Assembly (NCBI RefSeq): GCF_037042905.1 | Contig: NC_087250.1 | Coordinates: 16,928,001 to 16,992,000, forward strand | Reading direction: 5' to 3' | From: Lytechinus pictus | Taxonomy: Eukaryota | DNA: 64,000 nucleotides | Shown: piece by piece, positions 11,075 to 62,597 of the stretch | Numbering within the stretch: the stretch's first letter is position 1 | How the letters are laid out: every line of letters starts with the position of its first letter | The notes under the pieces: generated by a model | Told to the model about the DNA's origin: nothing | What the model saw: the letters and a program-made list of their open reading frames with translations, nothing else | Databases searched by the model: none | Program-made: the position numbers and the translations under genes

Positions 11075-11129
11075 TATAATATAAATTTACAGTGTCACAG
11101 GTAATGTAGAACTCAAGAAAACATTTGGT

Positions 11130-16970: not shown

Positions 16971-17393
16971 CTGGAAGATAAGGTCATAGTAATCAATGTT
17001 GTTCTGATGATGATGGTGATTATGATGACGATGATGATGGTACACTGTTAGAAAAATTGATCCTTAAAATAAAACAAGTTCCTGCAGCAGAGTCTCGAGA
17101 ACACCTGGGGCCTATTTCATAAAGAGTTGCTATCATAACAAGTTGCTATGATAGCAACTCTGGTAGAATAGCAACTTTTACTTGCTATGCTAGCAACTTT
17201 GCATTTCATAAAAGCACATTCGCTGAAAAGTCAGCTTGACTTTCCAGCTATTTATTTGAATAGTCATGTACGAGGCTGATTAGGGGGAAATCCCATTTCT
17301 CTCCAGTTTTTTGTTTTCAATTCAAGTCATAAGTTTAGGTAGAAAGCACTGGCGGATCCAGGGGGGGGGGGCACAGCCGGCCCGTGGCCCCCC

Positions 17394-36290: not shown

Positions 36291-36439
36291 ATATGTTCTT
36301 AAATAGGTTTGATCGTCTATAGACTTCGAAAAAAATGTCCAGTGCTTTGACTCTGAGGTGAGGGTCAGATGAATTGCTGGTCATAGAAAACTAGGAATTT
36401 ACCCTAACGGTTAACCCAAAGGATTGCGATATTTTAAAG

Positions 36440-38795
36440 ACCCCTTTACATAGTGATACCAAGAGATTGATGCAAATACATGATATTTATTCTCTTGACT
36501 ATATAAATCGCACAACTGGCACTCGTATTACTGAAACTTCATCGAGTTTGATAGACCTAATGGTTACCAACAGGACTGACCAAGTAAAGGTGTCTGGTGT
36601 CGTTGATATAGGGTTGAGTGACCATGCGATGAATTATGTTGTCTGGGGATCATCTTACACTAACCATACTCCACGTACTATAACGTATAGAAAAATGAAA
36701 GGTGTCGACATTGACAAATTCTGTGAACAACTTGAAAAGCAACCATGGGAAAATGCATACTTAGCGAAGGATGTTGATGATGCTGTTCAACTGTGGGAAA
36801 ATTATTTGATGGATGTTGTCAATTCTATTATGCCTGTCAAATCAAGAAAAATGAAAAAGAAGCTGTCTCCATGGATAACTCCAGACATTACAAATCTGAT
36901 AAAAGAACGTGATAAAGCTAAAAGAAAGGTATGGAAAAGCAAAACTAGTGATGCTACAAATTTTTACCGAAAATTAAGAAATAAAGTAACCTCAAAGATA
37001 AGGAAGGCAAAAAAAACAATACTATGTTGATAAATTGTCCTCTGCAATGGGGAGATCTACTGAGGTGTGGAAGGTTTTTAGATCTGTCCTGCCAACGTCA
37101 CGTTCCAGCTGCAGCAGTTGTGAATCTAGTGTAACTGATTCTGTATACAAAGCTAATGAATTTCATACTTTTTTTTCTTCAATTGGCACAGAACTAGCCT
37201 CTAGTTTTAATGATGTTCAACATTCTACAAACGATAGGCCTACTGTCAGCGATACCATTAATACTAACTTTACTTTTCAGATGGTTGCTGACGAGGACGT
37301 TCGGAAGGAAATATTAAAACTAAGAGACAACATTTCTGTCGGTTTAGATGAGATTTCATCCAAGATCCTGAAGATGTGTGCTCCCATTATTGTTCCATAT
37401 CTTACCCACATAATAAACAGATCTTTTATCGAAAATAAATTTCCAAACCATTGGAAAAAATCTAAAGTCATTCCTATTCATAAATCAGGTAACAGAAAAA
37501 TCTCCAAATAACTTCCGTCCTATTTCAATTCTACCCACTGTATCGAAATTACTTGAAAGATTCGCTCAGCGGCAATTGATCTCATTTTTAGAAAATAATA
37601 AACTCTTATCTGAAGTTCAGTTTGGGTTTAGGAGTAAACACTCCACCTTAACTTCTTTAGTTAGAATTACATATCAGTTGATGCACGCTCCTGATCAGGG
37701 GAAATATACCGGGGCAGTGTTTATTGACTTAAAAAAAGCTTTCGACTGTGTTGACCCTTATTTACTTCTTAAAAAATTACGCAATATTGGTGTTTCTGAT
37801 GAATGTTTGCCATGGTTTAAAGATTATTTGCATAACATATTTATTTCTACTTGTCGTGGTTCTACTCTTTCTAGTCCTTTATCTATTTCTCTCGGTGTCC
37901 CACAAGGTTCTATTCTGGGACCTTTGCTATCTATTATTTTTATCAATGATATAACTTTATCTGTACATTTTTCTTCTGTTCAACTTTATGCGGACGATAC
38001 TGTTATTTATTTTTCTGATTTTAATGTTCAAAGTGTCGAAAATAAGCTAAATTATGATTTGTCGTTTATTTATAAATGGATGTGCAATAATAAGTTGACG
38101 TTAAATTTAGATAAAACTGTATCTTTACTTATAGGCTCGAGACATAGTTAAATAAATGTAATGTTTTAAATGTAAATATCAATATCAATAACATTGCATT
38201 TCAACAGTCTACTAATGTTAAATATCTCAGATGTGTCATTGACAATAAACTGAAGTGGGATGTCCATTTTGAAAACCTATGTAGAAAGGTCGGCAAGTTA
38301 GTCAAATATTTGGGTAGACTCCGCTATTTTATTAATGAGACAAATCTAAATTTGATTCACAAAGCCATTATCTTGCCCCTTTTCGACTATGCGGATATTT
38401 TAATTGATTCCTCTAATAAAAAACTTACCAAACAATTGCAAACCCTCCAGAATCGTGCAAGCAGAATAATAATGAAAGTCAACCCATATGATCATATCTC
38501 TAATGTGCAAATTCATTCAGTTTTAAATTGGTCTTCTCTTGAATCTAGACGTAAGAAAAATCTTAACATATTTGTTTATAAATCAGTCCATGACATGTTG
38601 TCTCCAATCATGTCCGATATGTTTCAACCCTCTTCTCATCATTATTCAATACGTAATTCTCATAACTTTGCTTTACCCAAACCCAAAACAGAATACTCTC
38701 GTCGCACTATCCAATACAGAAATGCATCTCATTATAATACTCTTCCCCATCACATGAAATAGTTAGAAAATATCGATGCCTTAGGCGTCTTGTCA
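36440..38795 (+). mobile_element. Decayed CR1/L2-group LINE ORF2 (C-terminal APE plus full RT), 5'-truncated
   Basis: TRITETSSSLIDL..SDH, WKKSKVIPIHK, QFGFR, FIDLKKAFD, GVPQGSILGPLL, YADD; broken by stops and frameshifts. Confidence 0.93.
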
Positions 38796-40236: not shown

Positions 40237-41118
40237 ATGTAGTGAATCGGGGGGGGGGGGGGTTATCCGGCCCGTGCGCCCCCCCCCCTTGAGAGCCATT
40301 ATCAATTTTGTTAATGTAAATATGCCATTTTTACACAAGACTAGTGTGCCCCCTTTGAAACTCACAGCATGTATTTTAATGAGAATATGTCGTTCATACA
40401 CAAGTGAAGACCTTCACTTTAGCTTGGTAAACACCCCTTTTCCAAATATATTTGGTTATTAAAATGCACAGAGAGATGGTAGGCAAAGAATATAACTCGA
40501 ATGTTCATATTAAGAGTCAACCTATCAAGAGGGAAGTTACATGGTTAATTAAAAATGTGTTGATAAAATATCACTCGAACGTTATGTTATAATCTGCTTC
40601 GCCAAACAGTTTTTATGTAATATTGCTCTTTATAAAGGCAAGTATTAAACTACATTAAATGTCGAAATGTTGATAAATATAATGGAAACCATATTAAAAT
40701 GCACATTACGAAAAGAAACAAAATCAAGGTTCTAGAATGGGACAAAAAGAGAACAAGAAAACTACCAATTTGATGCTCATTTTAATTTCCCGAAAGCCGG
40801 ACGTTGAAAATGACATGGGCCAGCGCATTGCAAGCTGTATTTAACGGCTTACCCCATTGTCAAGGTAGATTTAAATGACCCCATTCTTGATTGGGGAGAT
40901 TACCCTATATTCTTGAACATAGAGGTGGTCTGACTGGTGGCGGATTTCAATAGAAATGACCCCTTGATTGGTGGGGGTATTTCAATGGGAGATTACCACT
41001 TTGTCAGCGCGGGTGACTGTCTTGATACTTTGATGTTCCCCGATGTGTCTTCTATTCGAAAATCGTGTTTGCAACTAATCCCAATTATGAGACTATTTGG
41101 CATCAAAATGAAAGCCTA
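40237..41118 (+). repeat. ~880-bp segment, copy 1 of a direct duplication
   Basis: Colinear with 43051-43939, with scattered substitutions. Confidence 0.9.
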
Positions 41119-43050
41119 ACAAAAAGAAAAAAAAGAAGGGAAAAAAGAGAGGAGAAAAGGAATAGGGAAGGGAGGAAAGGGAAAAAGGTAGCTTTGTGTT
41201 TGTTTGTTTGTTTGTTTTTTTTTTTCTCAAAAGAGAATCTCCTTCACTCTTGCTCTAAATTTATATATGGATTTTGCTTCCGCGCTGCGCGCAGTTAAAT
41301 GATAATATTGAAGTTCTCCATTGTTTCCCCCACCCTTTCTCTTACCCTGTTTTTCCACCTCAGCTATATGTGTTTCTTGCCAGTTAAAGTTCAAATGTAT
41401 ACATTAGGGCATGGAATTAGAGTAAGGTTAGGCCGAAGTATATGAAGTTATCTTTTTTTTTTATTGATTGCGCAACTTCTGGACGGGTCGGCCCTGGGCG
41501 GGTAAAATCTTTATATCAATTTCTGCCGTCACCTCCATAAAGTAAACTTCTCCTGCTTTTCAGCTCATCACTAAACAACCATATTTTGGGGCAAACAGGT
41601 CCCTAATTTAAAAAGAGGAAGGTATAAAATTCGTGTCGTATTAGATAGAAAAGTACAATATTTATTATCAATTTCTATTAAACTTCATGTCATTTCCCTG
41701 CACATTCATCTCCTGTCCTGTTTTGCGCACTCGTTTGAAATTTTGAATGACACTTAGGGTTCTTTATAATTCAAAATGAAGCGCTCCAGGATAAGTCAAA
41801 GAAATAAGGCATTCTTTTTTATATAATTTCAATGAATCACAGAAGTTTCAACTTTTTGCGCACTATTTTCCTTGTAATGAAGTTCAATAATCCTATTGAA
41901 TTAGACCTGATGGGGTATTAGAGATTTCTGCATTTGATGAAACGTCCGCCATTTGATACTTCAGAGTTTCATTGCTCTGCGCGGGGAGGAATATCTTCCT
42001 CCCGGCATATACACTTCTTCTCCTCTGTTTTGCGAGTTACGCACTATCGCTAAATTGTTTGTAATCAAATCTGATCTTTCCAAGAGAAGTATTCAATATG
42101 TCTTTGACAATACCCTTTTATCGGGACCCTTTTCATGGCAGAAACAAATTGAAAAAAAACGCTTAAGCCTCCGCGCTTCGCGCGGGGTTATTATTATTTT
42201 AATTTCCTCCATTGTATTCCTTTTTTATGCGTTCGCTCACAATCACTTTTGAAAACAAGGTTCATGAAAAAAGGTTCAAAATCACAATATTGTCAACTGA
42301 ATTGGAGCTGATACTAGAGAGACGGCTCCTTTTCATTTTAATTTATGAAACACCAAAAGCTTCGCGCTTCGCAAAGGGAGGGGGAAACTCCCCCTCCCTG
42401 CACCCACCCCCTAGGGAGCGCGCTTCGCGCGCTCAGTAGGTGTTGGCACGCTTCGCGTGCGATTACCTCCCCCTCCAAAATGAAATCCTGGCTACGCGGT
42501 TGTCTTCTTCCTATCAAAATTAATCTGCAATGTGTGTGTGTCAAATATTGCAAATTAGATTTCCAGTGTCTAAGGTAAACATAATTTACCGACGTAAAGT
42601 TAGTAATACAAAAGCCTCTTTGGCCTATAGTTTTCCTTCCAACTTTTTATTTCACCTCTTAATCGTATAGCTGCATTCTGTATAGCTTGCATATTTAAAT
42701 ATACAAAATAAAAATCAATAAACGTACAGGAAATGGTAATACCTCGGTCACATTTGCTCTTCGGCGGCCATACGGCGAGTCGAAAACAGAAACCTCCTAT
42801 ATTTAGCTGGTACAAAAACTTAAAACGACTGTTTTCGACTCGCCTTAGAACAAATGTGACCGAGGTATTTGGCATACTAGGTCAACAAGGATGGAGTGCA
42901 TGCGGGTGCGGATCCTGCCGGAGTAACACAATACAATCCAATAGGCGCCGAATAAACAATAGTTGGGCTGTCAATAGTATTGTAGTCTATTTTTTTACCT
43001 CTATAAAAAGAAGTCAGTGGGTCTATATTCTGCACCTGGAGGGTACAGAT

Positions 43051-43939
43051 ATGTAGTGAATCCGGGGGGGGGGGGAGCATCCGACCGGTGCGCCCCCCCC
43101 CCCCCCATTTGAAAGCCATTATCAATTTTGTTAATATAAATATGCCATTTCTATACAAGTGTGCCCCCTTTGAAACTCACCGCATGTATTTTAATGAGAA
43201 TATGTCGTTCATACACAAGTAATGACGTTCACTTTTGCCTGGTAAACACCCATTTTCCAAATATATTTGGTTATTAAAATACACAGAGAGATGGTAGGCA
43301 AAGAATATAACTCGAATGTTCATATTAAGCGTATACCTATAAAGAGGGAAGTTACATGCTTAATTAAAAATGTGTTGATAAAATATCAGTCGGAAGTTAT
43401 GTTATAATCTGCTTAGCCAAACAGGTTTTTTAATATGTAATATTGCTCTTTATAAAGCCAAGTATCAAACTACATTAAATGTCGAAATGTTGAGAAACAT
43501 AATGGAAACAATATTAAAATGCACATAACGAAAAGAAACAAAATCAAGGTTCTAGTATGGGGACAAAACGAGCACAAGAAAACTACCCATTTGATGCTCA
43601 TTTTAATTCCCCGAAAGCTGGACGTTGAAAATAAAATGGGTCAACGTATTGCAAGCTGTATTTAACGGCTTACCCCATTGTCAAGGTAGATTTAAATTAC
43701 CCCATTCTTGATTGGGGAGACTACCCTATATTCTTGAACACAGAGGTGGTCCGACTGGTGGCGGATTTTAATAGAAAGATGACCTCTTGATTGGTTGGGG
43801 TATTTCAATAGGAGATTATCACTTTGTCAGCGCGGGTGACTGTCTTGATACTTTGATGTTCCCCGATGTGTCTTCTACTCGAAAACCGTGTTTGCTGCTA
43901 ATCCTAATTATGAGACTATTTGGCATCAAAATGAAAGCC
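43051..43939 (+). repeat. ~880-bp segment, copy 2
   Basis: ATGTAGTGAATC...GGCATCAAAATGAAAGCCT shared with 40237-41118. Confidence 0.9.
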
Positions 43940-44485
43940 TCACTGCACCCTTTTCATAGATTTCGTTTGAAAATAAAATACTTACGTTCTAGGTAAAATT
44001 GGAATATGAGAAGGCGCTTTATGATATGTAAACCAAATGTGGTTTGTTCATAAGCATCTTTATAATAAATGTTACAAAATCAATTTTCATAGAACAAATG
44101 TTATACTCGATTTAGTTACAGCCAAAATATTTCAAAGTCATCGAGAGGGTAAGTATCAGACTAAATAATTCAAGCGTGAATTGCGAGCTTGAAAAGGGAT
44201 CATTTTATTAGGGCGGATCCAGCTTTCGTCAATACAGAGAGAGGACGCAAAATGTCCCCCCCCCCCCCTACAGCGCAAAGCTTAATTTTGTTGGTTTCTT
44301 TCAAGGGGGAGTCCAAACAGTGAAAATTAAATTAATTTATTCATCTAATAAGCCTAATCAGAGCACGAAATCTGTCAATATTATATATAATATATTTAAG
44401 GCACTTTTGTAATTATGAATAAGATGCATGAGCAATATATTTTCAACAATCAATGTGCGCGCAAATTGCCAGCTGAAAATTGTCG

Positions 44486-44771
44486 ATAATGTATTTTAAA
44501 GACGACTCGGCGATTTAAAATGATTTATAGGTCGGCGAACAAAGCCAGGTCATGAAGGTGTTTGTAATTTGGAATGGCGCGGTTGACGAGGTGATACGTC
44601 ACAATGGTGCGCCAGACGGTATTGTTTATGCGCACAATGACAATAATTTATACTGGGCACAAGGAGCGTCCATATTTTGGCGCGCGCGCCTAGGCGAAGG
44701 CGCGAAAAATCCTTCATTTTAGTCTTGGCTTTCAACGGAGATGAACGTCCAAAATATTCGCTTGTAATTTT
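44486..44771 (+). repeat. Split direct repeat A1 (286 bp)
   Basis: No differences seen versus 51750-52035. Confidence 0.95.
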
Positions 44772-45672
44772 TCTACAAAGTACAACGAGATCTACAAGAA
44801 TTTTTGTTGAAACCATCATCGATCGGGAATCATCTTAATTTTGCTTAATGCAGCTGTAAATGCTGTCCGAATTACTTGAGGATTCTCTATTTCTTGCCTG
44901 GCCTAACGATTAACCGTCTGCTTTGAACCGAGTTTTATACGACGGTACGAGGTCGAGGAGCTACGCCTACGCTACGACTACGTGTTGTCGCTATAACTAG
45001 TACCGTATAAGTAACACTAGTAGCAGATCGGCTGGGTCCTAGAACTTTTTGGTTTCCGCAACGATGAGAAATTGACTCGAGCTGCTAGATGGAATTCCGT
45101 TCAACGACATACGGTCGACTGGGATTCATCAGGATTATGAGTATTGAATGTTACGGTAGTCAGAGCCCGAGTCAGAGGTCCTACTACTAGTACTACTAGC
45201 TCCCGAGATCGAGTATGATGTGAAGCCTGTGGCTGAGCAGAGGCAACGGTCTGGACTCTGGATTAGCAGACGGAACGGGGTCGGTACCAGACAATTTACA
45301 AGTTCCAGTCTCTGCAAGACCTAGCCTATCCGGTGAGTACGGAAGCAGGAATAGATCTAGGCCTAGGCTAGACTCAGTCTGGATTAGTGTAGTAGTACTA
45401 GTGGGTGCTAGTACTACTACTACTACTACTAGTACTAGTACTAGTAGTAGTAGGCCTAGGCCTAAGTTAGGCCTAACTTAAGCCTATTGTTAATTAGGCT
45501 TGTTGAATGATCGAGGCCTGCTACAGTCTTAGTAACTCTTAGTCTTACAGAGTAACAGAGTACAGTGATACTGCTAGTACAAGTAGTAGGAGTATCGGGG
45601 TGATTTGTAACTTGTGGAGTTTTCTTTAGACTAGCGCAGGTAGGCCTGCCTAGGCCCTAGTCTGACTCTGAG

Positions 45673-45725
<53 letters not shown>

Positions 45726-48700
45726 ACACAAATCTCTTTCAAATTCAATTTCATGGCCCTTCAATACCCCCCCCCCGGTTTTTACGTTAGCACGCGAAGA
45801 TCCCATTCCCATGTGCTAGGCAAATTAAATGCCTAGGCCCTAGTTAATGTAGTCAGGCAAACAGGGGGGGGGGGGTCTATTTGCCATTTGGCTTGCTAAC
45901 GCTATTTAGTATTGGGGTCTGTAGGTCCTAGGTCAAATGTCAAGCCATAGTCGATCCTAGACATAACTTGGACTTGGCCTGGAATTAATTTTAAACTTGG
46001 TCCAAGTGTTTTAATTACGATCATGATGGAATTGGAAAAGGGAGGGGTTAGCTTCAAAATTTAAGCACAGGCCTAGCCTGGCATAGACCTGGTCCTACTT
46101 GACTACTTGTTTTGGTGTCTGAACCAGGTACAGGTGTGTCATGATGGAGATTGGAGGTTTTGAGAATGAGTTCAACAATTTTAATCTAACGTTGGTTACC
46201 GTAGCGTATTTATAGGCGTGGGCCCTAGTGCATCTGCATGACTAGATCTAGGGCCTATGGTTATACGGTTGTAATATACAATTTCGAAGCCGGTGGTTTG
46301 GACTTGGCCCAGTGAATGCCAACATTGCGGTTCTAAAATTTCTGCTAGTATCGATAATATGTATACGATGGAAAATCAAAAGGAAATTGTAGTCTATATT
46401 GGCGCTAACACTAACAGCTTATTTTAAAACTTTAAAGGCCTAGTTTATGGACTAGGCTAAGATCTATTTAGGACCATGATTAATTTTAAGCCACCGTTTT
46501 TGAAAAATGGTGAGAATAATAAAATAAATAGAGGGTATACTAATGATTGGCGAAGAGTTCAAACTTTTCGGTATTATTGATAAATAATTGAGTGGGAGAT
46601 GTCACTTTGTTATAAATTTACAAGTAGTCTACTGCACTGCAGCAGTGCATGGTGACACCACAGAGTGAAACTAGGCTCGGCCTAACGTTAGATCTACTTA
46701 CAGTAGACGCGGTTTTACATGTCTGTTTGGGGATAGACCCTATTATCAGATGGTTCAGTTAGGCCTATAATTTGACCTCTATGACGTTTTCTGGATTATG
46801 GGCCAGCGATAGACCGGTAGCGGTAATAATTATAGATTCTACTCAGCTTTCAAATGTTATTATTGAATCAGTCATTATTTTGGAAAGTAGCAGATGATGC
46901 TTATCATTATGATTATGTCATTAGCATTTTGTAATAATACACTTTGATAAGCATTATAAATATAAATACCTCCACTTGCACCAAGCAGTTCTGTTTAAAC
47001 ATGTACGCCTTGAAAGGAGGTTGGTTTTGGGAATTCACTTTGCATGAATTAAATGCCGATGCTTGGTAGAACTGTGAGCTCGAAGTTTCGAGGAAACACG
47101 GTACATGTAAAAGTAAACTGACCATGCACATGATAATCGGATGTAATTTCGAATTAGCTTGGAATCCCCAATTTAGTTTAGATTGAAGTCAAGGGGTTCA
47201 ACGAGCAGTTATTATAATAGTATGGGCCTCCTAACAAGGAACCTTGATTTTTATGATTTTGTATGGTTTATATCTTGTGGAAATGAAACTGAAAGAATGG
47301 AAATGCTTAGGCCCTATTGGAATTGAATTACTTGTTTTTATATAGCGCTTTATCAACCTCTAACCGCTCAAAGCGCTTCAGAATTGAACCTTACACCTCA
47401 TGGTTCAAGATATATATCAAATAGGCCTATTTGGCTGATCAATGATTTGAACTGAGATAATATCGATAGTATCATTTAAAATAATGATAATATATTATAG
47501 ATTTGGTATACATGATCAAGGCGGCAAATAAAATAATAAATAATGATGATGAGCTTATAATTATGAGCTAATTTCTTGAAGGCATTCAGTAGAAATTGAT
47601 GTAGTCGATTGACATGGGCCTGTGTTGCATGGGCCTGTGTTGGAAAGTGTCTGAAATATTGTACCATACTGTCATTTCCCCTTTGTTGCTTCGGGGGACA
47701 CAATATACGGATGCCTTAATAATGCAATAAGCCATATAGGTATATGGCCAATCAAACGAAATTTACCGATTGCTCAATCAGAAACCAGGTTCCAAAAAGT
47801 ATATCTTCTTCTTGGAATTGGACAGCGTGTGAAATATTCGTGCTGGTGGCCCGTTGATTATGAAAATGTATCTAATGGGCTGGATGCAGTTATTTGGCTT
47901 GATTATTTCTGCAGTGGTGTAGAGGTAAAACCGAATACTGAAATAAGAATAATAAATAATAAAAATGATAAGAGAAGTTATAGTCTAAAATGGAACAGAT
48001 TATTTGAAGCTTATTGAATCTGGTTTTGAAATATTGTCGAAGTTGCAACACGCACATATATGCATATGATTTGCATCGCTGGTTGGGGTTATACTGTAAG
48101 GAATTTGAAAATAGCAGTTATAAATGAAACATAAGGAGCAGGACTAATGATTACTCTGTGAAGGCGGTTTCAGATGTTTCGGGAAGCTGCTCGTTTCGTA
48201 TAAAGCAAAAAATTTAAGTACGCGTATATTGGAAGCTATGATAAAGAGGGCGAAGGATATACATGTATATATTTTATTTGTTATTTCTGAATAAATGGTA
48301 CAACTCCATAGGCATTTAGGGGGTTCAATTGAGCCCCCTCCCCAATACTGGTGAGGATTGTAATATTCCAAATTGTTTAATATGCTTTTCACTAATGCTT
48401 GTGTGTTTGCAGTAGATGAAGAAATGTTCATAACCTCTGTTATATACGTCCTTCGGTTTTCGGGCCGACAAGAGTGATAAATCGAAAAGGATAGCAGAGG
48501 GACAGACCCGTTTTGGTACTAGATATAGAATTTGGTGTTCTGCCCAGGCTTTTTTCTTCTTTTCTTTTGCAGTGCCGGATCTTTGGATGAAAGGGATTCA
48601 AGTGGGCTACTGCGAGGCAAGGTAGGCTGGCAGGAAAGTCTGATGACAATTAGACGGTAGACCTACTATAGTATGATCTAGAACGCTCCAAGTCTGGCTG

Positions 48701-49500
48701 CCAAAGAGTTCCCCTTTGGTTGGATCTATTTCCTGACCAGTTAGCTTAGAGTCCATAGTAAAGGATGTCATTTTGGGGCGTTAATACGCTCTTATAATAA
48801 ATAGAACTGAACTGGGTATTGTTGCCAGCAATGACACTAATTGGAGCAGTGGTCAACTTCTTCATCTTCATAGAACTAATTTACCGACAAGGTGGTTTTG
48901 ATACGTATTCCAAGGAATAGAGGTTTTTCTTCAGTCAAAAAACTGGTGAACAAACATTTTAGCCTTCAAGCAACAGGGAAAGATCATATTTGAAACATCA
49001 TGATACAGTGGGCTGTCTTGAAGGATAAGTTCATATAATATGAGGATGAATTCGTCATGATTTCAGTTTCAGACTTTTTATGAGGTCCCCCATATTGTTC
49101 ACTTGGATGGGATTGGAACTTGAACATGTTTGAACATATGAAGAAAGCCCTTTGTACGTATGCTTTTGCCAACAAGAATGGAACATATTGTTCAGGATAA
49201 GCATATATGAATGTATCAATGTATAAGGCACTTCAAATTTTATTCATTATCGTTTGAAGGACTACTTGTTCGGATGTTATTTAATTTTTTTTTTAAATAA
49301 TTATTTCATGGATGTGGTGAGGATGATAAAACAATAAAAAGGCAGTCATGTTTTACGTTGATATGTGAAAACATTATCGAAATTATTCATCCCGGGTAAA
49401 GTTCCAGTTGATGTTAACTGGCTCTTAGTTTAACAGCATATTTAATTGAGGAGTGTTGCTCTAACCGAGTAGTCCTGATCGGGAAGGTTTCATATTCAAA

Positions 49501-50236
49501 TTAGTTTTAGTGCCTTCAATTATCATGATTATACTCCATGTGTTATATGGGGTTATTCTGTGGATGTTACGCAAGCTTTCAGTTTTTATTTTATCTCATT
49601 TCAACAGAACAATTTACAAAATCCATTATAACTCAGGAATGGTATAATTATGTATTTGTTGGAATTAAGTGTGAGGTGACTAACTAAATGCTGTGGTTGG
49701 ATTTTAATTGAACGATTGTCTACAATTGAATTATATTTGTGCATAGGGTTAAATCATGCACTGTTATAAATGGCAAATGGGGCAACAAGAAAATGGCAGT
49801 ACCTCAGTGCGGCATGCATTGCTGGTTTAGCAATGTTGGGATGCTTCTATTAGTTTTAGTGCCTTCAGTTATCATGGTTATACCCCATTATCCAATGGGG
49901 TTATTTTGTGGATGTTAATCAAGTTTTCAGTTTCAGATTTTATTTTATCTCATTTCCAACAGAACAGTATACAAAATCCATGAAAATACAATTAAAACTC
50001 AGGAATTGTATGATATGTATTTGTTGGAATTAAGTGTGAGGTGACTACGGTAGCTAAATGCTACCTAAATGCTAAATGCTAAATGTTGGATTTTATTGAT
50101 CGATTGTCCACAATTGAATTATTTGTGTGCATAGGGTTAAATCATGCACTGTTATAAATGTATGGCAAATGGGGCAACAAGAAAGTGGCAGTACCTCAGT
50201 GCGGCATGCATTGCTAGTTTAGCAATGTTGGGATGC
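49501..50236 (+). repeat. Internal tandem duplication (~350 and ~385 bp) in the split-repeat element
   Basis: TTAGTTTTAGTGCCTTCA...TTGGGATGCT occurs twice with moderate divergence. Confidence 0.85.
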
Positions 50237-50668
50237 TAGGATTTGTTAATTATATTAAGGTCAAACCGATGACGTTCAGCCACCATTGATAACTTATCAA
50301 AATTAGTGATGCAATGAATTTCAATTTTGAAGCTTGCAATAGGTTTGTATCAAAACCATGATACTTAAAATTGCATATTATCTTGTCTTCCTTCATATGT
50401 TTTGTTTAGTTTTGTGCATGGTAATCAGATCTTAATTGTGAAGGAAGTTCTGACACGGTTTATGTTTAATGTATTTCAATTGGGAGATTGTTTCCAACAA
50501 CTGAATACATAGAAGTGTTTTCCATGCTCTCATTAAACTTGAGATGGATATTTTTTCATATACTTGTATTGAATATTTCTATCTGGTTTTTAAATGTCAT
50601 TTCATGCTGGTTTAAAAGGGGGCTGGTATGTTGGTCAAGGATAGAAAGCAGGTATTCTGAAGAAGAAG

Positions 50669-50717
<49 letters not shown>

Positions 50718-51015
50718 AGAGGCAAATAATGCAAGCCTTCAGGTAATTGTGTCATGAAAGACAGCGACGTCAAAGGTTGTACAAAGATGTATATTTTTGA
50801 TTCATTTAATTTATTGATGGAGGGCTTGGAGGCCTTCTTGATTATGCATGATAACTGATTTAGCTTGGCCAGCTAACACAAAACTGGAGTAAATTATGAA
50901 CGAAGGCTTAAAAATGAATGAAGTGTTTTGGCGGCCGATCATATATATAAAATATATTCTCGTTTGGCGGTAATTTGTCAAATTATGCCGCCTAAACACT
51001 GTTGTCATAAGATAG

Positions 51016-52035
51016 ATTGGCATGGAATATGTTCTTTAATCCACAATGGTCACTTTTGCAAGGTGTGTAAAGCAGTGAATTATATTTTAGCCTCTAGTTA
51101 TTAGATTTTCCACTTTGATGCCATGTACGTTGATTAATATTTCATATTGAATCGGGTCCTCATTCGGTACCTAGACGAAGGGGATTTATTTATAACTTTA
51201 CATAGTACTTTAGGAACGCAATTGTAATTTGAATGTAAGGGTGTCACGCTCGAACTTTCAGTTTAGGCCTCACCTGATCTCATAGGCGGGGAGGCTGGTA
51301 TTCTGTATACATTTATATTTTTCGTGAAATTTTGGCCTCACCCAAGTTCTCATGCGGGAAGGCTGGTATATATATTTATATTATATGATATAAGTATGCC
51401 ATCTGTAATCCACCGATTTGCCGATAGCTCATACATGTAGTTAATAGCTGTGCTGGTATTCCTGTCCGGCTAGCAGAGAACCAGTGGGAAAGCAGCCGTG
51501 AAATTTAACGTTGAATTTTCTGGGAGGGGGGCCTTCTAGCCGGGGGTTTAACCCCCCTTCGGGGAGCTAAACAAAGGCTATCGGTTGGTTCCAGACATAC
51601 ATGAATGTAAGTCTCTAATCTGAGGTATTCATATCCATGTTTTATACTTATGTGATTGTGACACCGGATTCGGAAAAGTGTTCATCTCTATTGAATAAAG
51701 CCACGACATAATCGCATATTATTTTGTATTGTCATTTTGTTTGCCGAGTATAATGTATTTTAAAGACGACTCGGCGATTTAAAATGATTTATAGGTCGGC
51801 GAACAAAGCCAGGTCATGAAGGTGTTTGTAATTTGGAATGGCGCGGTTGACGAGGTGATACGTCACAATGGTGCGCCAGACGGTATTGTTTATGCGCACA
51901 ATGACAATAATTTATACTGGGCACAAGGAGCGTCCATATTTTGGCGCGCGCGCCTAGGCGAAGGCGCGAAAAATCCTTCATTTTAGTCTTGGCTTTCAAC
52001 GGAGATGAACGTCCAAAATATTCGCTTGTAATTTT
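51016..52035 (+). repeat. Split direct repeats B1 + A2 (circle-junction copy)
   Basis: B1 51016-51753 overlaps A2 51750-52035 through ATAA. Confidence 0.95.
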
Positions 52036-52491
52036 CCCACCTCCTCCCCAACAACCATCCATGTAAATGTTACGTTTGGGTCAAACAATGTTGGAATGTT
52101 TAAACACATGCAATGGGGAAGGTCGAGAATGAAGATACTCTAGGTATCATTCAGAGTTGATTTGTGTTTTATTGGAGTGTATAGCTCGTTATGAATGGAA
52201 TAACGGATGTAGGATTGTTATATAATAATTTGGAAATTTGAATTATTTTACTTACATGAATTTAATGTTGATTTATATAACGAAACACGAATTCAAATCC
52301 GGGGGTAGTTTGCCTGGTCGCACATCAAAACAATATGAAGATCGTCGTGTAATTAGAAATGTGGGCCGTAAGGGAATTTTATCCTTCTGATCTATTTTGG
52401 TCTGTGGTCAGGTGGGTTTTCGCCCTTACCCGTTTTTGGGACTGGGTGTTCGTTATATTTTGGTAATTCACATGAATTGAGTTCTCATATT

Positions 52492-53229
52492 ATTGGCATG
52501 GCATATGTTCTTTAATCCACAATGGTCACTTTTGCAAGGTGTGTAAAGCAGTGAATTATATTTTAGCCTCTAGTTATTAGATTTTCCACTTTGATGCCAT
52601 GTACGTTGATTAATATTTCATATTGAATCGGGTCCTCATTCGGTACCTAGACGAAGGGGATTTATTTATAACTTTACATAGTACTTTAGGAACGCAATTG
52701 TAATTTGAATGTAAGGGTGTCACGCTCGAACTTTCAGTTTAGGCCTCACCTGATCTCATAGGCGGGGAGGCTGGTATTCTGTATACATTTATATTTTTCG
52801 TGAAATTTTGGCCTCACCCAAGTTCTCATGCGGGAAGGCTGGTATATATATTTATATTATATGATATAAGTATGCCATCTGTAATCCACCGATTTGCCGA
52901 TAGCTCATACATGTAGTTAATAGCTGTGCTGGTATTCCTGTCCGGCTAGCAGAGAACCAGTGGGAAAGCAGCCGTGAAATTTAACGTTGAATTTTCTGGG
53001 AGGGGGGCCTTCTAGCCGGGGGTTTAACCCCCCTTCGGGGAGCTAAACAAAGGCTATCGGTTGGTTCCAGACATACATGAATGTAAGTCTCTAATCTGAG
53101 GTATTCATATCCATGTTTTATACTTATGTGATTGTGACACCGGATTCGGAAAAGTGTTCATCTCTATTGAATAAAGCCACGACATAATCGCATATTATTT
53201 TGTATTGTCATTTTGTTTGCCGAGTATAA
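52492..53229 (+). repeat. Split direct repeat B2 (738 bp)
   Basis: Constant 1476-bp offset from B1; one mismatch seen near its start. Confidence 0.95.
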
Positions 53230-53719
53230 ACTGTAATAAAATGGAGATATTGATTAGTTTGTAATAGAATTGATATTGAAATTTTCATAACTCACCAATC
53301 AAAATGCGAGCATGCAGCGCTAGCTAATACGTTTATACAATCTGACATGGATAGGGATATTTTGATAGCTAAAATGGAATACAGGAAAATAATAGGTACC
53401 TGATACACAAAATTTTGCGCAGCGGGAGCACAAAATGTTAATAATCAGACAATAAAAAAATAAATCTTTACAGAACACTTTTTTAAAAATGATTTCAATT
53501 TCCGAGCTGAAATATGTTATGTGTATTGACTTCAAAATTTGATATTTTAAGTTCCATAGGTGTAAATCACCTAAAAGGCAATGCGAGCGCGAAGCTTGAG
53601 CGAAAATGTTATATAATGACATGAAATAATTTTAAAAAATTGTTTTCGAAGTCTTTCCCTCCTCTTATTTATTCAATAGTTTTCCTCCTATGTTTTTTTT
53701 CTCTCCTCTCCTCTCATTT

Positions 53720-53753
<34 letters not shown>

Positions 53754-54688
53754 TCTTTCTTTCCCCCGGCTTTTTTGCTCCGCCAATAGAGGAAGGAGGG
53801 TGGGGGCAAGCCCCTTGCCCCCCATGATCCAACTCTGGAAAAATCTACCAGAAAGTTATAAACAGGCAGATTCAAAAGAGAAATTAAAATCCGTGTTAAA
53901 ACTTTTTTTTTTGGGGGGGGGGGTTAAATAGCCTTTCCCGCCGCATTTGAAGCCCCTCTACGTTTTTCAGCCTACTGTGAACTGTGCAATTACTTTAATT
54001 TTTAGTGAAAATTAGATGGCCATCCATTCTCTCTCTTTTTAATCGAAATATAATCTTTGTATTTCAGGATCATGATTATGAAAACCTTTTATAACAAAAA
54101 TGATAAAGGAAAAACGCGTCTCAAGTTGTACATGGTTCATTGCTGCATAATATACCAATCATCTTCATTTGTTAATATTCAATCATCAACATTATCACTG
54201 ATATTATTATTCGCATTATCATGTCCGTTAATATCACTTCAAAGTTATGATTATCACTATCATCATCATCACCATCATCATTCATTCATTATATATTTCC
54301 AATCGTTCTCCAATATCAATTTTATATTTTATATAATTAAAAATATATGAAAGATAATGGTAATGACTATGGTGATGCTGGTAATCATGAATATTAGATC
54401 CGTTACGTGAGATAATTTATGCGATTTTACACGCTAATCGCTACTCGATGATGGTGAAAGAAATCTTTTAAATAGCACAAAAGAAGTCGGGACGGTAGTT
54501 ACTACACGTACTTTAATACACTATATTATTACAAAAGATTCCCCATCGGACGGGCCAACGGTCTTTTGAAGTAGGTTCATCTAATCACGACAGCGGATAT
54601 AGGGAATTAAAGTCTGTGAGCGTCTCCCATTGTTTTCTGTGGCGAACCCGCTGAGCATGCTATTGTCAATGATTCTCTACTATACGGG

Positions 54689-55788
54689 TGTGAGGGGATG
54701 AGAAATAACCCTTTCTTTATAATGCAGATTAGTCAGGTACAAAAGGAATGTAGCTAAAGAGGAGCAATATGCTCCAGTGGACATACACTCACTGCATGCA
54801 GGAAAAAGCTCAAACATGCAGTGAGCAGATGAGACTGGCTGTAGCTGCATGTGCCTACATGAAGCGGTAATCGATGTCTCATCCTGATATTCTTGATGTA
54901 TATAGTTGATTTTGGACACCTTAATATGTGAGTACAGTATATAATTTACTCTCTGATGTTAAGATTTGCTGAGGAGCTAAACTAGACAGATTATGATTTG
55001 TGTGAAGAAGAGGGAGATAACTTCGATTTACATGAAGGAGGCATGCTGGTATAGTAACCGAGTTATGCCTATTAATGCTAGAAAGGCGTGTCATTAAGAC
55101 ATAATACTATATATAACTGCCTTTTGGTAAGCCTTGTATTCATAAAGACAGGGCCTGTTGGTTTTCTTTTGGAATTCACGTTGGTAAGCAAATGTGTTAA
55201 TAACTAATTACAGATAGCAAATATTGAAATCTTTTCTAGAGTTGAGGTGACTTAAAAATTGGTAGATGTCATGCCCCACTGATTTGTATTGTGATTAGTT
55301 TGAGTATGTTTCTATTTTGCTTAAGACTGATAGAATGATTATGATAGCTCACTCATTTGCAGAATTGTGTTACCGGTATATATATCTATGTGAAAGTAAT
55401 AAATAGGGAATGGCCTTCTTTGCAGATCTATTTACTACATGCATTTCATAGGCTGAGGTAAACTCAATATATACAATGTACATGTATGAACTAAATTGCA
55501 TACAGTGTATATGGAAGACGATATATTTGCAATTACGGACCTTTAGTTTTTCTGCTCTGCTCTGAAAGCAGCTGTAGCAAGTAATTATTTGTGATCATAA
55601 TGATGCAATACTTACTGTAATTTTGTGTCTTTTAATTGTCTACAGCAACTGAAGTGACCTCAGTCAAGGGTCTTCTACCCTCTTTTGTTTGATTTGAACA
55701 TGATGAAATAAAGATTGGCCTCATACCCAATAGACCCGCAAAAACAACTGCTTCGCCTGATTTATGAATTTCAACCCTTATCCTCACA
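54689..55788 (+). repeat. 5' LTR
   Basis: TGTGAGG...CCTCACA; matches 61498-62597. Confidence 0.97.
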
Positions 55789-55893
55789 TTTGGTAGTACG
55801 GATGGGGTGCGGTTTCTCTTCAGATAACTGAGAACTATTGGCTTGGCCAGGTGTGTAACGATCAAGGAGTAAAAGACAAAAGAGGGTAGGAAG

Positions 55894-56838
55894 ATGACGA
55901 CCATGGAAGAGATGAGGGAGGAGCTGGAAAAGCTGTCATTGGAGCTGAAAAGTAGGGAAGTGTATTTCCCGCCCAAGGAAAAGAAAATCAGGCCCTTTAG
56001 TGGCACTGAAAACATGCTGGTCTCAGATTTTGCGGAGGACATTAAGGCAGGAATTAAACTTCGAAAGCTGACGGGTGAGAGTGCTATTGACTACGTGCTA
56101 GCTCACCTGGAAGGATCTGCAAGGCAGGAGGTGCAACATCGCCCAGATAGAGAAAAGAAGGATGCTGATTCAATAATGAACATCTTATTGGAAGCCTTTG
56201 GGGACAAGCTGAATGCTAGTCAACTAATGCGGCAGATATATAACCGAGTACAAAATGAAGATGAGTCTGTGGCACAGTACGCATATGCCTTACTTGCATT
56301 GGCGACTCGATTGCAACGCAAACCAGGAGCTCCGGAGTCGAAGAATATCATCAAAGAACAGTTTAAAGATGGGTTGAGTGACCCAGTACTCAGGAGGGAA
56401 GTGAAGCGGTTGTTTAAAGAAAAGCCAGAATTGTCTTTTCTAGAGGCACGAGACTGGGCGGTGGAGATGGATGAGGAAGAACTTAAGGGCACCAACCCAC
56501 GCAAAAAGAAATGCACCACCTACCAGGCCGAAGCCACAGCCGAGATGGGAAAGATGGTAGAGGGGCTCACTGCAGCGATCAAAGGCCAAACAGAGCTACT
56601 TGACAAGATGATAGTACAGCAGGGCATTTTCAATTCTCGTCTAAGTCAGTTAGAGGAGACGCAGGACAATGCCAGGAGATTCAGGAGACCTCCTCTAGAC
56701 AAGAATAAGATTGAGTGCCATCGATGCCACCGCATGGGTCATTATGCAAGGGAGTGTGAGAGTCCTCATCCTGGGGGCAATCCACGTACACAGAGGGCTG
56801 GACAGTCAAACAGTCGGCAACAGCAACAGGGAAACTGA
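55894..56838 (+). CDS. gag: Gag with CCHC zinc knuckle
   Basis: 314 aa; Q..DESV..Y major-homology-like segment; CHRCHRMGHYAREC. Confidence 0.95.
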   Translation: MTTMEEMREELEKLSLELKSREVYFPPKEKKIRPFSGTENMLVSDFAEDIKAGIKLRKLTGESAIDYVLAHLEGSARQEVQHRPDREKKDADSIMNILLEAFGDKLNASQLMRQIYNRVQNEDESVAQYAYALLALATRLQRKPGAPESKNIIKEQFKDGLSDPVLRREVKRLFKEKPELSFLEARDWAVEMDEEELKGTNPRKKKCTTYQAEATAEMGKMVEGLTAAIKGQTELLDKMIVQQGIFNSRLSQLEETQDNARRFRRPPLDKNKIECHRCHRMGHYARECESPHPGGNPRTQRAGQSNSRQQQQGN

Positions 56839-56906
56839 ATACACCCAGGGCTGAGAGCCAAGCCCTGGGTGTCTCTTCAGAGTCAGAGAGTTTTGAAAGG
56901 GGCTCT
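56829..56906 (+). promoter_or_regulatory. Programmed -1 ribosomal frameshift signal
   Basis: G_GGA_AAC heptamer directly before the gag TGA, 5-nt spacer, perfect 12-bp stem (56841-56852 / 56861-56872); loop AGAGCC can pair with GGCTCT at 56901-56906; -1 frame open into pol. Confidence 0.85.
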
Positions 56907-59900
56907 GGAAATGGAGAACGAAACATGCTCATTGGTATTTGCCCCACAAGCATCATATTTATTAATGGGGTGGAACTCACTAGTGTGGTAGACTGTGGGT
57001 CTCAAGTCACAACCATCACTTCCAATTGCTTCCAGCGATCATTTTCGCCGTCGACCCTAAATAAATTAAACTGGATTTCTCTTAGTGCAGCAAATGGGAC
57101 AGATATTCCTTACTCTGGATATTTTGAGGCTGATGTGACTATTGCTGGCATTACAGTTCCGAAAAGAGGTATTCTAGTAACAAATACATCACATAAACCA
57201 AAACATCCCATTTTGCTCGGAATGAATGTTCTGCAAGGTTTGCCAGGTGAGACCTTAGCAGCCGTAATTGGAGCTGATGCGTCAGTAGTCACAAGCAAGA
57301 ACTGGATCGACAAGAAAAGTACTGTGGGCCTTGTTCGTGTTGCTGGAAGAGGGAAGGTGAGAGTCCCAGCTCGATCAATACAAGCCATAGAGGTGACAGG
57401 ACCCACTTGTCCTACCCAAACCGCGGTAATTGTGGACCAAATTGTGCAAACTCCGAAGGGAATCATCCTCAGTCCGACTCTGGCTCATTCGTGTAGGGGG
57501 AGAATAACTGTACAATTATACAATACCACAGATGAGGACATCTTCTTAAATCCCAGAACTCCAATTGGATCTCTTCAACTTGCATCGATGATCGATGACA
57601 ATAGTGTCGTGTGTCAAAGAATGGTTGCAAGTGGGGACCAACAAACTGATACAGGTAGAATGAAGCTGCTAGAGACACCTGGACTACTATGGAAAGGACT
57701 GAGTGAGGAGCAGAGACAACAAGCAGAAGCCCTGTTGTTACGAAATAGTGATGTCTTTGCTGCCTCGGAAGAGGACTTGGGCCATACGGAAACGGTAACC
57801 CACCAAGTCAGAACAGTAGATGAGGAGCCTGTTAAGCTTCCATACAGGCGTATCCCCCCATCCCAGCTGGAAGAAGTTAGAGAGCATATCCGAAAGCTAC
57901 TGGAGAAAAAGGTTATCAAGGAAAGTACAAGTCCTTATGCATCACCAATTGTATTGGTTCGCAAAAAAGATGGTTCATTGAGGCTATGTGTGGACTACCG
58001 CAAATTGAATCAGAAAACTAGGAAAGATGCCTATCCAATACCAAGGATTGACGAATCAATGGATGCGTTACATGGCGCACAATGGTTTTCGACACTTGAT
58101 CTCTTGTCGGGCTATCACCAAGTGGCTATGGATGAGAGGGACCAACACAAGACAAGCTTTACAACACCCTTTGGCTTATACGAATATGTACGTATGCCTT
58201 TTGGATTGTGTAATGCGCCAGGAACGTTCCAGCGTCTAATGCAAATTTGCTTAGGGGACCAGTTCTTCTCGTCTGTCTTGTGCTATCTGGACGACATTTT
58301 AGTGTATTCGACTACCTTTGAAGAACAGCTTGAAAGACTAGACCGTGTATTTGACAGACTTCGCAAGCATGGACTAAAGATCAAGCCCTCAAAATGTGAA
58401 CTGTTCCGTCCAGAAGTGAGGTATTTGGGCCATAAAGTTTCAAGAGAGGGCGTGCAGACAGATCCGGACAAGATCGAGGTGGTGAGGAGCTGGCCAACAC
58501 CAAGGAATCTGAAAGAGCTACGCTCTTTTCTGGGGTTCTGCTCCTTCTATCGACGATTTGTGAAAGGATTTTCACAGATTGCTGGCCCCCTGCACAGTCT
58601 GGTTGCCATCCAAGTTAAGAAGAGGAAAGAAAGAAAAACAACACCCTTTACGTGGGAACCAGAACACCAGGCGGCATTTGAGGAGCTCAAAGAGAAACTA
58701 TGTCAACCGCCAGTGCTTGGATATGCAGACTTCACAAGACCATTTGAGCTCGAGGTTGATGCAAGTCTACAGGGACTAGGAGCTGTTCTTTTCCAGAGGC
58801 AAGGTGGTAAGCGTCTGGTAATCGCTTATGCCAGTCGAACGCTCAGAGGTGCAGAGAAGAACATGGAAAGGTACTCCAGTATGAAGCTTGAACTACTGGG
58901 GATGAAATGGGCAATTTCAGAGAAATTCAGAGATTATCTTATCGGGAGTACATTTACAGTGTTCACAGACAATAACCCTCTGGCTCATCTTAACTCGGCG
59001 AAACTTGGGGCTGTAGAACAGCGATGGGTTGGCGCTCTCTCCGCATTCAACTTTGATGTACAATACAAACCTGGAGCGTCAAACATGGTAGCGGATGGAT
59101 TATCTCGTCGCCCCCATGCATCACCCGACACTGCAGAAGAGGCGATATATACTTCTGATGGATGTTGTATGGTAGTGGGAGCTACTCGGTTGCCAGAGGA
59201 ACTCCAGCACACTCATGTCTATTCCCAATTTATCCAAGACAAGGGAGAAATGCAGGATAATGAGGAACCTTCTCCTACGCCTGCCCCATTCCCGAACTAT
59301 TCAAGGGAACAGTTGGAAGAATTTCAGCTTCGAGATCCAACTATCAGCAAATTCCGATACTACTGGGAGAGGAAAGAAAAGCCAAACAGAGAACAGAGGG
59401 CTATAGAAGACGAAAGTGTAATACTTCTCTTGCGGCAGATGGAGAAGATAAGAGAAAAGGGTGGTCTCTTATACAGAGTCTGTGACTTGGAAAATGTTTG
59501 GCAGTTACTTCTACCCAGAGTACTCATCAAGGATGTACTAAAGGCTTGCCATGACCAGACAGGACATCAAGCTGTGAAAAGAACTACAAGCCTAGTTAGG
59601 AGTCGATGTTACTGGCCAAGGATGACGATGCACATCAAAGATTGGTGTAATCAATGTGATCGATGTACCAAGGCGAAAAATCCACCAAGGATCAGAGAAC
59701 CCATGAGGGGATTGACAGCTTCTCGCCCAAATGAATTGCTGGCTGTTGACTTCACTCTACTAGAACCAGACTCAACAGGCAAGGAAAATGTTCTTGTCAT
59801 GACTGATGCATTTTCCAAATATTCATTGGCAGTCGCAACTAGGAATCAAACAGCTGAAACCACAGCGAAGGTACTTGTAAGAGAATGGTTCAGCAAGTTT

Positions 59901-61034: not shown

Positions 61035-61497
61035 TAGCAACTCTTACTACCTGATATGGAACTATTATTGGAGAAAGTGGTTGGAATCTTGTGGACGATA
61101 TCAGCGTTTGCGAACAAAACTTTAATCAATGTTATTGAAGAAAACAGTGGTAGTGGGAATATTGATTGATAAGATGTGTTTGTGAACACACACACATTAA
61201 TTATAGTTTTGTTGTTTTCATACAGGTTTAGGAAAGAAATGTATTTAAAGTTGGGATTTGGGGAGGAGAATAAGTTTGGATGTATATCTGAAGAAGTATA
61301 TGTTTACTTTGAGACAAGGACAAAGTTATACTGTACATGTATTTTGGTACCTATTATGCAACTATATGGAAAGCAAAAAAAAAAAAAAAAAAAATAAATA
61401 AAAAAATTGTTAGTGCTCATGAGTTTTGTTTAAGTTAAATATTATTATTAGAATTATGCCAAGTTTGAGGACAAACTTGAATTTTAGCAGGGGAGAT

Positions 61498-62597
61498 TGT
61501 GAGGGGATGAGAAATAACCCTTTCTTTATAATGCAGATTAGTCAGGTACAAAAGGAATGTAGCTAAAGAGGAGCAATATGCTCCAGTGGACATACACTCA
61601 CTGCATGCAGGAAAAAGCTCAAACATGCAGTGAGCAGATGAGACTGGCTGTAGCTGCATGTGCCTACATGAAGCGGTAATCGATGTCTCATCCTGATATT
61701 CTTGATGTATATAGTTGATTTTGGACACCTTAATATGTGAGTACAGTATATAATTTACTCTCTGATGTTAAGATTTGCTGAGGAGCTAAACTAGACAGAT
61801 TATGATTTGTGTGAAGAAGAGGGAGATAACTTCGATTTACATGAAGGAGGCATGCTGGTATAGTAACCGAGTTATGCCTATTAATGCTAGAAAGGCGTGT
61901 CATTAAGACATAATACTATATATAACTGCCTTTTGGTAAGCCTTGTATTCATAAAGACAGGGCCTGTTGGTTTTCTTTTGGAATTCACGTTGGTAAGCAA
62001 ATGTGTTAATAACTAATTACAGATAGCAAATATTGAAATCTTTTCTAGAGTTGAGGTGACTTAAAAATTGGTAGATGTCATGCCCCACTGATTTGTATTG
62101 TGATTAGTTTGAGTATGTTTCTATTTTGCTTAAGACTGATAGAATGATTATGATAGCTCACTCATTTGCAGAATTGTGTTACCGGTATATATATCTATGT
62201 GAAAGTAATAAATAGGGAATGGCCTTCTTTGCAGATCTATTTACTACATGCATTTCATAGGCTGAGGTAAACTCAATATATACAATGTACATGTATGAAC
62301 TAAATTGCATACAGTGTATATGGAAGACGATATATTTGCAATTACGGACCTTTAGTTTTTCTGCTCTGCTCTGAAAGCAGCTGTAGCAAGTAATTATTTG
62401 TGATCATAATGATGCAATACTTACTGTAATTTTGTGTCTTTTAATTGTCTACAGCAACTGAAGTGACCTCAGTCAAGGGTCTTCTACCCTCTTTTGTTTG
62501 ATTTGAACATGATGAAATAAAGATTGGCCTCATACCCAATAGACCCGCAAAAACAACTGCTTCGCCTGATTTATGAATTTCAACCCTTATCCTCACA
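61498..62597 (+). repeat. 3' LTR
   Basis: Same length as the 5' LTR, no differences seen; preceded by PPT AGCAGGGGAGA. Confidence 0.97.

Follow-up and report, generated by a model that had tools for sequence, protein, structure and literature searches.

The 64,000-nucleotide stretch of Lytechinus pictus DNA analysed here (contig NC_087250.1, positions 16,928,001 to 16,992,000; hereafter the window) holds an inserted element without genes; its end repeats form two nearly identical pairs, A and B, that interleave, and its parts are collected in Table 1. Self-comparison of the window found A1 and A2 identical at 286/286 positions and B1 and B2 identical at 737/738, the sole mismatch being B position 11, which bears out the essentially identical split direct repeats that an earlier note, made from the letters alone, had described. 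The parts follow one another in the order A1, interior, B1, A2 and B2, with a 456-bp spacer separating A2 from B2. The last 4 bp of B1, ATAA, are also the first of A2, and ATAA likewise starts A1 and closes B2.

The flanks of the element, joined through one ATAA, match the reverse complement of the host repeat at 26150-26560 in 238 of 290 columns, and the uninterrupted copy of that repeat near 26,150-26,560 has ATAA at the corresponding site. The rejoined flanks thus reconstitute a host repeat with ATAA at the site, so that 44486-53229 is an insertion without variable target duplication; restoration of a repeat matching the reverse complement of ~26290-26465 had already been noted and is confirmed. 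Two full long terminal repeats (LTRs) that end in TG..CA, and a target duplication of 4-6 bp, mark an LTR retrotransposon. These were not found: in agreement with the earlier note, inspection showed no TG..CA ends, nor was there a variable target duplication at the B1A2 block or the element ends. The ends likewise carry no true terminal inverted repeats. In this respect the earlier note was right, but it did not report that the end of B has an inverted, asymmetric 12-bp match at A positions 47-58. ARAGORN detected no tRNA genes within the element.

The longest stop-to-stop frames of the interior have 124 and 120 codons and the longest ATG-started frame 95 codons, lengths at chance, as they were reached in 40/200 (longest stop-to-stop) and 55/200 (longest ATG-started) shuffles; the claim that no open reading frame (ORF) exceeds about 100 amino acids accordingly holds for ATG-started frames and fails for stop-to-stop ones. 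The sensitive profile search for remnants of reverse transcriptase (RT) and tyrosine recombinase (YR) that had been proposed as a check was run, and no Pfam match to RT, RNase H or YR was obtained in 6/6 frames read through stops, by a procedure that detects RT in the neighbouring frames of a Gypsy element and of long interspersed nuclear elements (LINEs). The 120-codon frame has no Pfam match, and a weak, unrelated match to TPR_NAA35 (E 0.007), lying over an A run, was rejected. Searching the element by tblastn with seven proteins from the window's own RT-bearing retroelements returned nothing under E 1 (best E 1.2), and no Rfam family reached its gathering score in the element, one match falling below it. 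The coding capacity of an autonomous member (Gag, RT/RNase H and YR) is absent, and the element is therefore at most a non-autonomous member of the DIRS order.

The G-over-C skew of the element is 0.157, against 0.01 and -0.05 in the flanks (0.01 being that of the 20 kb to the left), and the AATAAA of B sits 60 nt from the B end, with a GT-rich tract after it. Both the skew and the poly(A) signal agree with an RNA of the + strand, which is likely the transcribed one. The ratio of observed to expected CpG in A is 1.66, and this CpG-rich repeat may act as a promoter. The spacer is unrelated in sequence to the interior, and its derivation from the interior by deletion was rejected.

Table 1. Parts of the element, its host site, predicted hairpins and interior features (window coordinates)
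Feature	Position	Strand	Remarks
Whole element	44486-53229	+	8,744 bp; order A1-interior-B1-A2-spacer-B2
ATAA core, left end	44486-44489	+	opens A1
Repeat A1	44486-44771	+	286 bp; CpG-rich
Non-coding interior	44772-51015	+	6,244 bp
Repeat B1	51016-51753	+	738 bp; AATAAA at 51694, then GT-rich tract
ATAA core at B1/A2 joint	51750-51753	+	common to B1 and A2
Repeat A2	51750-52035	+	from self-comparison
Spacer	52036-52491	+	456 bp; C-rich tract at start
Repeat B2	52492-53229	+	AATAAA at 53170; ATAA core 53226-53229 as end
Host repeat, left portion	44401-44485	+	85% to reverse complement of 26384-26464
Host repeat, right portion	53230-53837	+	72% to reverse complement of 25728-26358
Predicted hairpin over B1/A2 joint	51736-51807		28 pairs, imperfect; folding compared with shuffles
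Predicted branched hairpin	50921-51004		ends ~11 nt before B1; top-ranked of 434 windows
Palindrome-rich stretch	44950-46500		CTAG 20.6 per kb, 1.7 outside element
Perfect palindrome, 34 bp	45420-45453		inside palindrome-rich stretch
A run, 48 nt	45676-45723	+	
A run, 46 nt	50669-50714	+	
Internal tandem duplication	49500-50237	+	~350-390 bp, 81% alike

Other copies were examined in four public sequencing runs, placed on 44772-52491 as a reference in which each element part is present once. Two were raw RNA runs, X17 and X18, of each of which ~6 in 100 was used (281 and 271 reads placed); X1 is a contig set whose kind is not on record (135 contigs placed) and X9 a DNA-type contig set under another organism label (34 contigs placed), and the contig depths of these two were not read as copy numbers, which they do not represent. 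The further runs X10-X16, which had small shares, were left out. Reads of X17 and X18 depart from the reference exactly before 51750, where A starts (7 and 9), and after 51754, where B ends (6 and 10; 10 and 11 reads cover 51728). Each side has one flank consensus; joined together, the flanks yield repeated TAA units and with them an ATAA site again. There is a second insertion locus with exactly the same ends at another ATAA, both flanks of which, from their fit and the read numbers, probably belong to one locus; the core is found at 2/2 known insertion sites. The second site lies at the head of a repeat similar to a common dispersed repeat that opens with AAT runs, part of which is the motif at 47336-47385.

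Mean depth of first mates on the plus strand over B-A-spacer was 14.6 against 2.2 for the other strand in X17 and 21.0 against 0.7 in X18, while the interior reached 0.05 to 1.0 per strand in these runs, with strands mixed. The spacer-to-B joint, seen in 4/4 runs, is carried by 10 and 11 reads of X17 and X18. High depth over B-A-spacer, low depth over the interior and the presence of spacer-to-B joints indicate that the second locus holds A-spacer-B alone, as a solo copy. An A-to-spacer joint carrying a 76-bp deletion occurs in 10 and 7 reads (X17, X18), and the interior-to-B1 joint is covered in X1, X17 and X18. Contig 14 of X9 runs through B, the B/A joint, A and the spacer start (736 letters, 27 differing, 2 gaps), and diverged pieces of the interior give depth in 27/30 and 19/30 bins in X1 and X9. 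B-A-spacer, spacer-B and interior-B joints thus occur in independent runs. The arrangement was not created by this assembly, and the element belongs to a family older than this copy. Among the loose ends listed, beyond which 43 more were recorded, those in X18 and X1 (at 52035 and 44796) seem to mark a sister subfamily with a different stretch, 50 or more letters long, between A and the interior; loose ends in the public runs also point to another copy with the spacer start fused to B position 401, and in another copy 73 bp are missing inside A. Exact-pattern scans for the element gave 0 hits in metagenome contigs and 0 in viral contigs, and the interior had no match among phages.

The further suggestion that the element is a mobile long non-coding RNA gene was not supported by the runs. 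In the interior, depth did not exceed ~1 per strand, none of the 15 joints listed (of 19) has the GT..AG or CT..AC ends of canonical splicing, and no pile-up of transcript starts or ends appeared in ~6 in 100 of two RNA runs. In these samples the idea is unsupported, yet not refuted.

The letters in which the window copy departs from the others bear directly on how its repeats became alike. Among the 40 letter-difference rows listed (of 314), 20 fall in A or B. At nine of these 20 the other letter is carried by at least 85% of X17 and X18 reads, by at least 75% of X1 depth and by the X9 contig (B positions 361, 558, 606, 651 and 713; A positions 123, 174, 184 and 210), and at 9/9 such sites the rare letter is present in both window copies; the remaining 11 rows comprise B position 11 and sites at which the other copies disagree among themselves. 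A single solo copy dominates the RNA runs, and the comparison rests on few independent copies; X9 agrees with the RNA runs, so the window letters are likely derived. Since both repeats share derived letters, they were copied from one template after those changes arose. The shared rare letters match the regeneration of ends from an internal joint that split-repeat (Ngaro/PAT-type) retrotransposition predicts, and shared derived letters are hard to obtain from two separately moving units. For copies drawn at 1% divergence, the chance of no more than one difference in 1,024 bp is 4e-4; by a young copy is meant here 1 difference in 1,024 repeated bases, with no rate applied. The second ATAA locus with identical ends and the homogenisation of the repeats together uphold the central proposal of the earlier note, a young non-autonomous split-repeat element inserting at a short shared core.

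We conclude that the element is probably a young non-autonomous retrotransposon of the DIRS order (Ngaro/PAT-type), predicted to be copied from RNA by a borrowed RT and inserted by a borrowed YR at ATAA. The observations behind this reading are the arrangement of the parts, the core that recurs at the two ends and at the B1/A2 joint, the interrupted host repeat, the second locus and the shared rare letters. To these we infer an RNA, a primer, an intermediate and a helper as parts of a mechanism that may run as follows. An RNA of the + strand would start in A1 and end at the AATAAA of B2, and such an RNA would lack both true ends. A borrowed RT would copy it in trans, with the internal B1/A2 joint serving as the template that restores both ends, and template switches during copying would make A1 equal to A2 and B1 equal to B2; because B position 11 differs and positions 361 onward share rare letters, the switch in B would fall between positions 12 and 360. 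A borrowed YR would then recombine the restored joint with a genomic ATAA, following the short-core integration model extended from DIRS1 to split-repeat elements, so that each end would carry ATAA and no variable target duplication would arise. If A1 and A2 later recombined, a solo A-spacer-B copy like that in the RNA runs would remain.

Several points weigh against a retrotransposon of this kind. No helper with RT, YR and the same ends was found, the part of the genome covered being the 64-kb window; the Pfam six-frame scan and tblastn revealed no remnant of RT, RNase H or YR in the element; in the four runs no read or contig covers it whole; and a sense full-length transcript was not seen in X17 or X18. 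The B-A-spacer RNA has its first mates on the + strand, which is antisense in most stranded libraries; library orientation is not recorded, and the pattern suggests antisense RNA, likely from host read-through of the solo copy. The core rule has thin numbers behind it, two insertion sites, one of them inside a TAA run, and should a TT target suffice, the remaining core letters at the window site might be there by chance (roughly 1 in 10). Assembly polishing may have collapsed the two copies of each repeat into one, although this would tend to yield common, not rare, letters. Finally, the ends also fit part of the Helitron2 description.

Read on the minus strand, the element might consist of two non-autonomous rolling-circle units of Helitron2/Helentron type lying head to tail, a short B-spacer-A unit and a long one, the solo copy then being an independent transposition of the short unit. 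In that orientation it can be parsed as starting with T and inserted upstream of T at both sites, a parse that is not unique because the 4-bp core can be cut anywhere. It also shows an asymmetric inverted repeat of 12 bp, with one arm at the 5' end and the other 47-58 nt from the 3' end, and a small hairpin after it; these features match the second Helitron type of PMC8969392 section 11. The same description has hairpins at each end, whereas here the A end folds at -5.2 kcal/mol and the last 60 nt of B at only -1.6, and long homogenised direct repeats lie outside it (PMC8969392). Rolling-circle copying moreover gives no reason for rare letters shared at 9/9 sites while spacer and interior are unrelated, and the poly(A) signal and the skew point to the opposite strand; we regard this origin as improbable. 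A passenger of a DNA-only YR (Crypton-type), whose ATAA-bounded units excise as circles and re-insert at ATAA, their own ends included, would likewise arrive at a long-plus-short tandem, and a constant 4-bp direct repeat at the ends, here ATAA at 2/2 sites, is the Crypton hallmark (PMC8969392, PMC13465315). This route offers no mechanism for homogenising repeats of 286 and 738 bp, no remnant of a Crypton YR was found in the element in six Pfam frames, and we rate it as decidedly improbable.

B1A2 is a contiguous block of 1,020 bp whose B part has a poly(A) signal and whose A part includes CpG-rich sequence, and it could be taken for an ordinary LTR or a Penelope pseudo-LTR, the layout then resulting from a rearranged or tandem insertion. 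The absence of TG..CA ends and of a variable target duplication sets the block apart from the LTRs of the neighbouring Gypsy element. A hammerhead ribozyme, characteristic of Penelope-like elements and retrozymes, was detected neither by Rfam nor by a core-motif scan of the element, and no 5'-truncated tandem pseudo-LTR copy was found. Both element ends recur to the base at the second locus, whereas Penelope copies are 5'-truncated (PMC8969392); this explanation is largely refuted and very improbable. Nearby identical repeats can also be products of an assembler, and no read spans the element here; with B-A-spacer, spacer-B and interior-B joints present in independent public runs and flanks that rejoin into a host repeat, mis-assembly of a single copy is extremely improbable.

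Split repeats define Ngaro, PAT-like and VIPER elements (PMC9210276, PMC4157794, PMC6681497, PMC3783388). Autonomous members, sea-urchin SpPat1 included, resemble the window element in their A1...B1A2B2 order, identical repeat pairs and solo AB remnants (PMC9210276, PMC4157794, PMC6681497, PMC8547959); unlike it, they encode Gag, RT/RNase H and YR and are drawn with A2 and B2 adjacent. Among Cafeteria Ngaro elements, laid out as A1-ORFs-B1A2B2, isolated AB repeats occur to which the solo A-spacer-B locus is comparable (PMC8547959). Split repeats, which arose more than once, cannot classify an element by themselves (PMC4157794), and repeat configurations other than A1-B1A2B2 exist (PMC8969392). 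Ngaro and PAT-like elements are told apart by a methyltransferase domain and by RT phylogeny, and the window element has no coding sequence. It would work like a split-repeat YR retroelement, putatively one of Ngaro or PAT type. DIRS1 integrates at a short core without target duplication (PMC3266345, PMC7192593), and the RT of DIRS-1 has been suggested to act in trans (PMC7192593 section 21).

Long non-autonomous families with an A-int-BAB arrangement are listed for Ectocarpus, namely Ngaro-N1_Ec32 (7,756 bp) and PAT-N1_Ec32 (9,475 bp), and these share with the window element the lack of target duplication and the presence of interior tandem repeats (PMC12477816 supplement). Unlike the window element, neither has a spacer noted in that source; the B repeat of Ngaro-N1_Ec32 links it to an autonomous family and PAT-N1_Ec32 keeps a pol fragment, whereas the window element is so far without a tie to a helper (PMC12477816). 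The same source gives unknown2-N1a_Ec32 as 'A-gap-BA-gap-B' without ORFs, the spacer layout found here, with low expression without exons and the remark 'possible nonautonomous DIRS?'; it differs in its length of 4,243 bp, its termini and its brown-algal host, and is unclassified by the curators (PMC12477816). Given these two long Ectocarpus families and the 'A-gap-BA-gap-B' one, neither size nor spacer is new, and the descriptions of the element as unusually long, and of its spacer as a departure from the usual layout, prove weaker than claimed.

TOC1 of Chlamydomonas reinhardtii has split repeats, those on the right being separated by a short unique segment, and is shorter than the window element. 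It is a non-autonomous DIRS-order element dependent on TOC3 (PMC5613634, PMC9940879), and differs from the window element in that its helper is known and its mobility has been observed. No paper on gene-less split-repeat elements in echinoderms was found in the literature searched, which was mostly open-access and without Repbase.

The B1/A2 joint is predicted to form an imperfect hairpin. Its outer arm pairs 51736-51747 with 51796-51807 (12 pairs, including one G-T), the ATAA core pairs with its mirror at 51789-51793, and a 9-bp inner arm joins 51756-51764 to 51778-51786. As DNA, an 80-nt segment over the joint folds at -16.8 kcal/mol (z -5.5), matched by 0/300 shuffles, against -7.9 kcal/mol for the same A start next to host DNA (66/300 shuffles) and -3.3 kcal/mol for the B end next to host DNA (113/300). 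This segment was picked post hoc and ranks 4th of 434 in a blind scan, and an alternative fold of the B end with 51769-51787 also scores; 0 of the 40 difference rows listed (of 314) lie in 51736-51807. The top rank went to the predicted branched hairpin at 50921-51004 (z -5.2 as DNA and -4.4 as RNA, 0/200 shuffles), a candidate stop or switch signal for reverse transcription. Whole-repeat folds were weak or no better than shuffles (z -1.5 for A, -2.0 for B, -0.3 for the spacer), and comparison of A, B, the spacer and the interior ends revealed no long-range exact A-B pairing beyond 10 nt, equalled in 20% of shuffles.

The joint hairpin may be a folded single-strand recombination site, a pair of inverted binding motifs in duplex DNA, or Helitron2-type ends, and could be a signal read by the borrowed recombinase. 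If the restored B/A joint were read as folded single-stranded DNA, split-repeat elements would integrate their single-stranded complementary DNA (cDNA) directly, by analogy with integron cassettes and their folded attC sites, bottom strands of which are mentioned in PMC8876359; we consider this an unlikely, speculative proposal. The core, lying between the 12-bp and 9-bp arms, would then have the geometry of a YR site, and the mirror of the joint built into A might play the part of the DIRS1 internal complementary region. No hairpin over the B/A joint was found in the descriptions examined of autonomous Ngaro, PAT-like and VIPER elements, nor was any report of a hairpin at a split-repeat joint found in the mostly open-access literature searched, to which the Goodwin and Poulter papers and Repbase did not belong.

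The remainder of the window is repeat-rich animal DNA with LINE remnants, a cytochrome P450 exon and an intact Gypsy element. The last, a Gypsy-type LTR retrotransposon at 54689-62597, lies 1.5 kb from the split-repeat element and has no sequence in common with it; its 1,100-bp LTRs are identical (1,100/1,100) with TG..CA ends, the 4-bp duplication CGGG stands on each side or close, and its gag frame of 321 amino acids is accompanied by a pol frame of 1,424 amino acids with protease, RT, RNase H and integrase. A foldback-like element at 17418-22134 has 288-bp inverted arms, 99% complementary, that enclose inverted arrays of a 49-bp unit and a 127-bp tandem repeat. The direct repeat at 40237-41120 and 43051-43943 (~890 bp, 91% alike, 2.8 kb apart) perhaps represents old LTRs or two copies of one dispersed repeat. 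Two frameshifted LINE remnants occupy 1-1828 and 36395-38759, the second with an RT match. The P450 exon lies on the minus strand at 14910-15443 (Pfam p450, E 7e-24), with a likely upstream exon in the vicinity of 16686-17063 that has no Pfam match. Degenerate tandem arrays of 150-180-bp units fill 9975-12780, and a tRNA-Thr(CGT)-like gene called by ARAGORN at 5017-5088 may be the head of a short interspersed nuclear element.

The finding is modest, in that this kind of element is already on record in algae. Priming, end restoration and integration in DIRS-order elements are nevertheless largely untested: DIRS-1 has no known primer, most of the cDNA found is linear and single-stranded, and its circle joint resisted amplification (PMC7192593). 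Since a passenger without genes retains nothing but signals that act in cis, the present family offers three candidates that can be mutated singly, namely the predicted joint hairpin, the predicted hairpin before B1 and the spacer.

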